A stretch of 24,668 bases of DNA from a virus (IMGVR_UViG_2563366840_000014:1-24668), one strand, 5' to 3'. Shown: positions 11,509 to 12,484, counted from the first letter of the stretch. Program-made: numbers and translations. The notes: generated by a model from the letters alone, not told the origin.

Positions 11509-12161
11509 TGAGTAATAAATATTGCCAGGCGCTGGCGGAACTGCGGAACAAACCAGCCCATGAACTGAAGGAAGTGGGCGATCAGTGGCGCACGCCGGAC
11601 AACATTTTCTGGGGAATTAACACCCTGTTTGGCCCGTTTGTTCTGGATCTGTTCACTGACGGTGATAACGCCAAATGTGCTGCGTATTACACGGCGGAAG
11701 ACAACGCGCTGGCGCATGACTGGTCAGAACGCCTTGCGGAGCTTAAAGGTGCTGCCTTTGGTAATCCCCCATACAGCCGCGCCAGTCAGCATGAGGGGCA
11801 ATACATCACCGGCATGCGTTACATCATGAAGCATGCCAGTGCCATGCGTGATAAAGGCGGGCGCTATGTTTTCCTGATCAAAGCTGCCACCAGCGAAGTG
11901 TGGTGGCCGGAAGATGCAGATCATATTGCTTTTATTCGCGGGCGTATTGGTTTTGAACTGCCTGCCTGGTTTATCCCGAAGGATGAGAAGCAGGTGCCGA
12001 CAGGCGCTTTCTTCGCTGGTGCTATTGCTGTTTTCGACAAGACCTGGAAGGGACCGGCAATCAGCTACATCGGGCGCGATGAACTTGAGGCATGTGGTGA
12101 GGCCTTTCTGGCGCAGGTTCGCCAGCAGGCAGAAAAACTGGTCAGGGAGATGGCGGCATGA
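11508..12161 (+). CDS. Phage N6-adenine DNA methyltransferase (Dam-like, orphan)
   Basis: NPPY catalytic motif (FGNPPYS); start overlaps the upstream stop (TAATG) after a GGGGG RBS; no adjacent restriction gene. Confidence 0.8.
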   Translation: MSNKYCQALAELRNKPAHELKEVGDQWRTPDNIFWGINTLFGPFVLDLFTDGDNAKCAAYYTAEDNALAHDWSERLAELKGAAFGNPPYSRASQHEGQYITGMRYIMKHASAMRDKGGRYVFLIKAATSEVWWPEDADHIAFIRGRIGFELPAWFIPKDEKQVPTGAFFAGAIAVFDKTWKGPAISYIGRDELEACGEAFLAQVRQQAEKLVREMAA

Positions 12162-12484
12162 CGACGTTAACTCAATGCCAGCAGCAGGTGCTGGATATGC
12201 TGATTTCTTATCAGAAAGAACGTGGCTTCCCGCCAACCAATCAGGAGGTGGCAACCATGCTGGGATACCGTTCAGTGAATGCAGCGGTGGAGCATCTTCG
12301 CGCACTGGAGAAAAAAGGCGTCATCACGATAAAGCGTGGCGTGGCCCGGGGCATCACGCTTCATACCGCGGTGAAGGACGACGACAGCGAGGCGGTCGGG
12401 ATTATCCGCGCACTGCTTGCCGGTGAGGCAAACGCCAGGCTGCGTGCAGCCCACTGGTTACATGAGAGGGGCCTGAAAGTATGA
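12158..12484 (+). CDS. LexA N-terminal DNA-binding-domain protein (no peptidase domain)
   Basis: 108-aa winged-helix protein resembling the LexA DNA-binding domain; ATGA overlap with the upstream gene. Confidence 0.6.
   Translation: MTTLTQCQQQVLDMLISYQKERGFPPTNQEVATMLGYRSVNAAVEHLRALEKKGVITIKRGVARGITLHTAVKDDDSEAVGIIRALLAGEANARLRAAHWLHERGLKV

Follow-up and report, generated by a model that had tools for sequence, protein, structure and literature searches.

A phage-borne LexA-type DNA-binding protein without a protease domain in the delayed-early operon of lambdoid prophages, and its possible link to the SOS response

The window analysed here, by which we mean the whole stretch of viral DNA IMGVR_UViG_2563366840_000014:1-24668 (24,668 nucleotides), is a lambdoid prophage, and an intact open reading frame (ORF) on its plus strand (12158..12484) encodes a stand-alone LexA-type DNA-binding protein. 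The assignment draws on the ORF list, the sequence itself, and Pfam and PHROG matches; the frame has 108 codons, an ATG start and a TGA stop. Its product consists of a LexA-type winged-helix head (residues 1-68), a linker of low confidence in the structural model, and a conserved hairpin of two helices (residues 74-103), and the gene is a genuine member of the delayed-early ('nin') operon of the prophage.

The Pfam model LexA_DNA_bind (PF01726) matched residues 1-65 over all 65 of its positions (E = 2.9e-19), scoring 69 bits against a cut-off of 23.7. Peptidase_S24 gave no Pfam match in the 108-residue protein, while the same search did detect S24 in the cI repressor of the window. The NCBIfam equivalog model for lexA (TIGR00498) was covered only from position 1 to 91 of 203, and the score of 70.7 bits lies under its curated equivalog cut-off of 110.95. 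The protein ends at residue 108 with no S24 domain, and the Ser119/Lys156 dyad of LexA is absent from it. When PDB sequences were searched with phmmer, the best matches were the DNA-binding domain of E. coli LexA (1lea, 3jso) and full-length LexA (E ~1e-15). Judged by these sequence scores, the likeness to the LexA head is far beyond chance. At the family level, residues 1-108 aligned end to end with positions 1-106 of the 106 in phrog_362 (E = 4.2e-59), and the full-length profile match, the two-helix tail and the nin-region position together place the protein in PHROG 362. It is also 98% identical to a cluster of 2527 members that carries the name 'LexA family transcriptional regulator'. An earlier sequence-only reading had described this ORF as a stand-alone LexA N-terminal winged helix of 108 residues lacking S24, and Pfam, NCBIfam, the PDB match and the structural model all agree with that description.

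An AlphaFold model of the protein was built on 12 family members, with a predicted local distance difference test score (pLDDT) of 82 and a predicted TM-score (pTM) of 0.57. In this model, and by Foldseek comparison, residues 1-68 (12158..12361, plus strand) form a winged helix-turn-helix (wHTH) domain with the topology of LexA, comprising helices 6-22, 28-35 and 40-52 and a two-stranded wing at 56-58 and 66-68. Foldseek superposed the model on the LexA-DNA complex 3jso with a root-mean-square deviation of 1.0 A across 68 residues at 50% identity. The recognition helix, as aligned with E. coli LexA, spans residues 39-52 (SVNAAVEHLRALEK; 12272..12313, plus strand). In LexA, DNA is contacted by S39, N41, A42, E44 and E45 (PMC3091678). 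Comparison of the window protein (SVNAAVEHLRAL) with LexA (SPNAAEEHLKAL) showed that S39, N41, A42 and E45 are retained, whereas E44 is replaced by V, and the wing motif R-G-I is common to both proteins. Since four of the five contact residues are kept, binding of SOS-box-like half-sites by the window protein is plausible. Several subfamilies among the relatives described below likewise depart from the LexA helix at E44 alone (SPNAAAEHLKAL).

The C-terminal hairpin (residues 74-103, with helices at 74-87 and 93-103; 12377..12466, plus strand) was delimited from the AlphaFold model and from relatives, and is joined to the head by linker residues 69-75, which are of low confidence in the model. 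With a length of about 30 residues, it occupies the place of the self-cleaving, dimerising S24 domain of LexA. Relatives were gathered by an exhaustive profile search across 1.8 billion representatives. Ten full-length relatives at 40-47% identity (P0122, P0124, P0125, P0127, P0132, P0133, P0137, P0144, P0150 and P0158) all keep the tail pattern, with A97 and L101 invariant, and alignments of relatives gave the tail consensus ..AxxxLRALLxxxxxARxRAxxxLxxxG. In 72 distinct sequences of one sister subfamily the ratio of nonsynonymous to synonymous substitution rates (dN/dS) was ~0.20 for the DNA-binding domain and the tail alike, and both domains are thus under purifying selection in that subfamily. 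The hairpin matched no Pfam family and had no sequence relative among solved structures in the PDB. From its amphipathic helices in the model, we infer that the hairpin serves for dimerisation or for binding a partner, in place of S24.

HMMER paired the first tail helix (IIRALLAGE) with the cleavage-site region of LexA (LVGRVAAGE), so that LLAGE stands opposite VAAGE, and homology to LexA runs through its linker to about residue 91. This alignment suggests descent from a truncated lexA. LLAGE was considered as a working LexA cleavage site and rejected, because the segment is helical in the model and the Ala-Gly pair is missing in other subfamilies, which have LLSGGD, MIDDQP, MVERES or LLACSV. 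In E. coli LexA, by comparison, the Ala84-Gly85 site lies on a strand or loop. With no S24 domain and no conserved cleavage site, the protein is predicted to be insensitive to RecA-stimulated self-cleavage, and the earlier proposal that it would not be cleaved after DNA damage is borne out to that extent by sequence and model.

The gene order of the prophage runs from cI (8173-8826, minus strand; HTH_3 and S24 domains by Pfam) through a CII-like gene, an O-like replication gene (10076-11017), a PerC-like gene and a Dam methylase gene to the LexA-domain gene, and continues with RusA, a KilA-N protein, DUF968/HNH and Q (14668-15462). Beyond Q lie a terminator, holins, endolysin, Rz, terminase and portal. 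The upstream neighbour is a phage DNA N6-adenine methyltransferase (Pfam Dam PF05869, E = 1.2e-45; 11475..12161, plus strand), and the downstream neighbour is a RusA Holliday-junction resolvase (Pfam PF05866; 12481..12870, plus strand). Both are joined to the LexA-domain gene by ATGA overlaps on the plus strand, read from the sequence and the ORF coordinates: one between the Dam stop and its own start (12158..12161), suggesting translational coupling, and one between its own stop and the rusA start (12481..12484). A Shine-Dalgarno-like GGGAG (12145..12149, plus strand) was read 8 nucleotides 5' of the ATG, and a consensus scan found no promoter-like site just 5' of the gene. By this layout, we regard it as a delayed-early gene of the cI-repressed pR operon, located between the replication genes and Q. 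Because the gene is overlapped inside a cI-repressed operon and has no promoter-like site of its own, it should be silent while cI is bound and yield its product only after induction or infection. The immunity operators are palindromes of the ATGTAGGATATCCTACAT type at 8055-8110 and 8850-8889, on either side of cI, and TTGACA/TACATT promoter-like sites lie over them at 8861-8890 (plus strand) and 8086-8057 (minus strand). The suggestion that the LexA-domain protein might bind the prophage operators found no support here, as these OL/OR palindromes stand beside a cI of the HTH_3/S24 type and are unrelated to LexA boxes.

A set of 189 related loci was drawn from IMG/VR with four distant relatives as queries, and the nin-region order, in which the LexA-domain gene is followed by rusA/DUF968/Q, is shared by the window and all 189. 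Thirty-two of these loci form an N-extended subfamily (P0132/P0133 type) related to Klebsiella phages, and in 30 of the 32 a canonical SOS box was found upstream of the LexA-domain gene. In the loci read, the box (e.g. TACTGTTTATTTATACAGTA) overlaps the promoter -10, and in most of them a rho-independent-type terminator lies ahead of the promoter. The operon in this sister subfamily consists of dinI (PF06183; often, though not always, present), a small protein with a GTG start (phrog_1813), the LexA-domain gene, orf67 (phrog_1212), rusA (also not in every case), DUF968 and Q, with examples among loci L093-L119 at L102:4320-4339 and L093:4561-4576. By their sequence features, these dinI-linked, SOS-box-controlled relatives tie the family to the SOS response. 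The trigger would be a cI-derepressed operon in the window and a LexA-repressed promoter in the sister subfamily, and in either case production would coincide with the destruction of LexA. As a consequence, every lineage would make a non-cleavable LexA-type protein just as host LexA is destroyed. The sequence-only reading had held that the protein modulates prophage induction; for its own cI-type prophage this is unlikely, as the protein would be made after induction, while for the SOS-box subfamily it is plausible. Five loci of that subfamily (L112, L113, L115, L116 and L119) have another canonical SOS box, located some 500 bp 5' of the one at dinI and ahead of a gene that starts with MGFPSPAKDYAEQTL and is UmuD-like in appearance; these phages therefore contain at least two adjacent LexA-controlled units.

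The Salmonella Gifsy prophages have a LexA-controlled operon of the order dinI-antirepressor-irsA-orf67-ninG-Q (PMC3121763). Its layout is of the same kind as that of the sister subfamily, with an SOS box, dinI, a small protein and the same orf67, although the likeness is positional only, and whereas the Gifsy operon is under an SOS box, the window gene has none and is driven from a cI-controlled early operon. The location of phrog_1813 makes it a candidate for an antirepressor that has yet to be characterised; homology to the GftA antirepressor was rejected, since no sequence similarity was detected and the position alone is analogous. Gifsy irsA was likewise rejected as a member of the LexA-domain family, because IrsA (STM1020) is a NinB/Orf protein.

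Of 5426 complete E. coli genomes, 2233 (~41%) have a gene at least 95% identical to that of the window, in up to four copies per genome, and PGAP names it 'LexA family transcriptional regulator' across those genomes. Fifty phage records have the same gene, with 97.6-100% identity among the records listed. These phages include vB_EcoM-720R4, SfV (orf42), SfIV, mEp460 and many Stx2c phages, and the labels in the records vary ('LexA-like protein', 'LexA DNA binding domain protein', 'transcriptional repressor'). Stx2a phages have the gene too. Members of the family also occur in many Klebsiella and other enterobacterial phages. The gene is thus not new as an annotation, and its kind, a phage-encoded truncated LexA homologue, is already known from gp6 of the Bacillus tectivirus GIL01. 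What appears to be undescribed is the hairpin that replaces S24, the LexA-like helix with its systematic loss of E44, the fixed nin position, and the SOS-box/dinI operons of the sister lineage.

Variants of the architecture were also seen. The LexA-domain protein is part of a fusion in some database gene calls. In P0001, where PerC and Dam have been lost by deletion, its partner is the N-terminus of the O-like replication protein, and in P0121 it is the C-terminus of Dam; these two are deletion or frameshift variants of the module. Eight proteins of 140-350 amino acids (P0128, P0130, P0136, P0138, P0140, P0143, P0149 and P0162) have two tandem LexA DNA-binding domains, apparently without S24, and are possible covalent 'dimers', another non-cleavable LexA-type architecture. 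At loci L084-L091 (~6001-6477) a variant of 158 amino acids combines the same LexA head with a different C-terminal domain of about 90 residues (phrog_29443/24920), and sits in the same slot with a C5 methylase on one side and RusA on the other.

Further sites resembling LexA targets were noted in the window and in related phages. The pattern CTG-N10-CAG occurs 14 times in the window against 6.2 expected, a number reached in 0 of 100 shuffles. In 12 of the 14 sites the spacer is G+C-rich, unlike SOS boxes, and most sites lie within coding sequence; CTG/CAG codon bias is our guess for the excess. An AT-rich near-SOS box with one mismatch (CTGAAATAATAAACAG) lies at 15871-15886, between an ORF of 108 amino acids of unknown function and a holin gene, and is compatible with chance. 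In related phages a canonical SOS box (TACTGTAAAAATAAACAGTG) stands in the first codons of a DNA methylase gene of the late region, 3' of Q, at 41023-41038 in mEp460 (L195) and at 12885-12900 in vB_EcoM-720R4 (L001). Several IMG/VR loci have the same late-methylase box as well, at a distance of 3.3-5.5 kb 3' of the LexA-domain gene; the window is without that methylase, and the near-box at 15871-15886 was rejected as a relic of the mEp460/720R4 box because the regions are not homologous. In mEp460 a perfect box is also present within the repressor gene (31972), and two boxes lie at dinI (23257 and 23285).

Other features of the window concern the prophage as a whole. Two separate KilA-N domain proteins are encoded, one in the nin operon (12890-13699) and one past the lysis genes (17879-18409), and the Q antiterminator also matches the DnaJ CXXCXGXG zinc-finger model. 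At 15570-15591, 108 nucleotides 3' of Q, lies a strong terminator-like hairpin, AAACCTCGCTTCGGCGGGGTTT with Ts behind it, as expected for tR'. The O-like replication gene contains inverted and direct repeats of iteron type (GTCAGATTCTGAC / GTCAAAATCTGAC) at 10378-10440, which are probably the replication origin.

The explanation we favour, with a probability of about 0.4, is that the protein is a RecA-insensitive surrogate of LexA that re-represses SOS promoters after induction. For this to work, the hairpin would have to dimerise the protein, and the LexA-like recognition helix would bind CTGT-type half-sites, in other words SOS boxes or sites much like them. Because activated RecA (RecA*) would be unable to inactivate the protein, and because its production would be limited to prophage induction or infection (in sister phages, to the firing of the LexA-repressed promoter), it would take over the SOS operators once host LexA is destroyed. 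SOS-controlled host functions would then be turned down together with LexA-controlled rivals such as antirepressor-type prophages, colicins and SOS toxins, and in the SOS-box subfamily the protein would exert RecA-independent negative feedback on its own operon of dinI and the small protein. More tentatively, such surrogates would form a family, borne by prophages in roughly four in ten complete E. coli genomes, that re-represses the SOS regulon after prophage induction, and the sister lineage, with its SOS box, dinI and putative antirepressor, would turn LexA-controlled induction into a self-limiting pulse; this wider claim we hold as possible but doubtful.

The protein would be a phage-borne functional equivalent of a LexA(Ind-) allele. 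Alleles such as lexA3 have the same mode as that proposed here, a LexA-type repressor that RecA* cannot remove, and in Salmonella lexA3 prevents induction of the Gifsy prophages, which LexA controls, and leaves that of the cI-type Fels-1 unblocked (PMC3121763). LexA(Ind-) proteins are, however, point mutants of full-length LexA that dimerise via S24, whereas the window protein is a natural truncation with another C-terminal module. E. coli LexA itself shares with it the winged-helix fold, the contact residues other than E44 and the wing motif, and differs in S24 with its catalytic dyad and in E44, for which the window protein has the hairpin and a valine; lexA is also an autoregulated chromosomal gene, while the window gene is phage-borne and part of the nin operon. 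Small dampers of the SOS response are otherwise known from mobile elements. PsiB, which is encoded on plasmids, acts on the RecA filament. DinI, a modulator of RecA*, also acts on the RecA filament (PMC3121763, PMC7556043). Unlike these two, the window protein would act on DNA.

Several points weigh against the surrogate reading. The exact SOS box CTGT-N8-ACAG does not occur in the 24.7-kb window, and matches to it with one mismatch were at chance level over the whole window (10 against 8.8 expected). Pairs of CTGT and ACAG at spacings of 0-20 were not enriched over chance in the window either. Position 44 is never Glu in the 189 related loci, and E45 is additionally lost in some subfamilies (SPNAVALHLRAL, which is dinI-linked, SPNAATDMLRKL and SPNAAVAHVKSL); with E44 replaced in all members and E45 lost in some, specificity may have drifted off the SOS box. 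The only pointer to dimerisation through the hairpin is the amphipathic character of its helices, and the low pTM leaves the position of the hairpin uncertain. The sole characterised stand-alone LexA domain, GIL01 gp6, is an activator with a new target, and full-text literature searches found no functional study of the enterobacterial family.

Such a change of target is the core of an alternative that we consider unlikely, yet to be taken seriously: a phage-specific transcription factor of the gp6 type, drifted to a new phage or host operator, would time lytic development without any general effect on SOS. The one characterised precedent is of this sort: the truncated LexA homologue gp6 binds GaCACAnnTGTGaC and thereby switches on P3, a late promoter (PMC6182141). 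Like the window protein it is a stand-alone LexA DNA-binding domain of a temperate phage, encoded in an early operon and made after DNA damage (PMC6182141). The constant absence of Glu at residue 44, the variation of the recognition helix among subfamilies, and the presence in the same slot of the 158-residue variant, whose C-terminal domain of ~90 residues is another one, would all fit a regulator that has acquired private targets. On the other hand, the inverted repeats found in 7300-16000 were only the cI operators and the iterons of the origin, a search in which the gp6 site GaCACAnnTGTGaC itself was not included, so that no conserved palindrome around the early operon offers itself as another target, and the late genes of these phages already have Q. 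The relationship to gp6 is also distant. It has 66 amino acids and no hairpin tail, against 108 with a hairpin here, and its helix SHKTAHRYLMQL (SHKTAHRY) is altered at N41, E44 and E45, with Lys38 of gp6 corresponding to the Asn41 that the window protein has in common with LexA; the window helix is thus much nearer to that of LexA. BLASTP of gp6 against the window protein gave no alignment, and the best PHROG family of gp6 is 3502, with phrog_362 reached only at 2.8e-5, whereas the window protein belongs to PHROG 362. From these comparisons, gp6 appears to be a capture from a Gram-positive LexA that is independent of the enterobacterial family.

Apart from transcription, the protein could be an accessory DNA-binding factor for recombination, junction resolution or methylation that works with RusA or the methylase. 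Its neighbours invite this idea, since an overlapping rusA lies directly downstream at 145 of 188 loci and a DNA methylase gene upstream at about 140 of 189, and in Gifsy-2 the equivalent slot is taken by NinB/Orf (IrsA), a recombination mediator, with the same orf67 and the NinG resolvase next in line. The upstream methylases, however, belong to five unrelated Pfam families (MT-A70 65, Dam PF05869 40, C5 PF00145 22, D12 PF02086 7 and N6_N4 PF01555 6), and their type does not co-vary with the recognition helix, which led us to reject a specific partnership; the upstream slot looks like a hotspot of methylase cassette exchange in the nin region. About 30 loci are without RusA and have a DUF968 gene (22 loci) or a queuine-transglycosylase-like gene (8 loci) downstream instead, and a sequence-specific LexA-type helix under purifying selection suits a regulator better, so an accessory role appears improbable. 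Still less probable is a decoy at the protein level, in which the protein would occupy SOS boxes non-productively or its tail would bind LexA, RecA or another S24 protein. The tail is without a known homologue and HMMER does align it with the linker and cleavage region of LexA, but parts of the family have lost the Ala-Gly pair and the segment is predicted to be helical, unlike the cleavage strand of LexA. The last alternative, a functionless, decaying remnant of a captured lexA, could draw on the truncation relative to LexA and on the many fused or frameshifted gene calls in databases. It is close to refuted by the selection data (dN/dS ~0.2 over both domains), and the architecture is kept down to 40% identity, the gene is tightly coupled to its neighbours with a good Shine-Dalgarno sequence, and it is conserved at 95% identity or above in the 2233 genomes. 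A role in a defence system was rejected, as PADLOC returned only a marginal wHTH match.

DNA-damage responses, antibiotic-induced mutagenesis and the induction of many prophages, including Shiga-toxin phages, all have LexA cleavage as their master switch. If the surrogate reading is true, an induced phage could use its uncleavable binder of LexA sites to shut down SOS functions of its host together with competing LexA-controlled elements, and strain differences in SOS output, including mutagenesis, persistence, Shiga-toxin phage induction and cross-induction of co-resident prophages, would hinge on a phage gene known from annotation only. Because the gene is so widespread among complete E. coli genomes, even a modest effect would bear on SOS variation among natural isolates. 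If the protein has a private target instead, it would join GIL01 gp6 as another, independent example of a phage that has turned the DNA-binding domain of host LexA into a regulator of its own.

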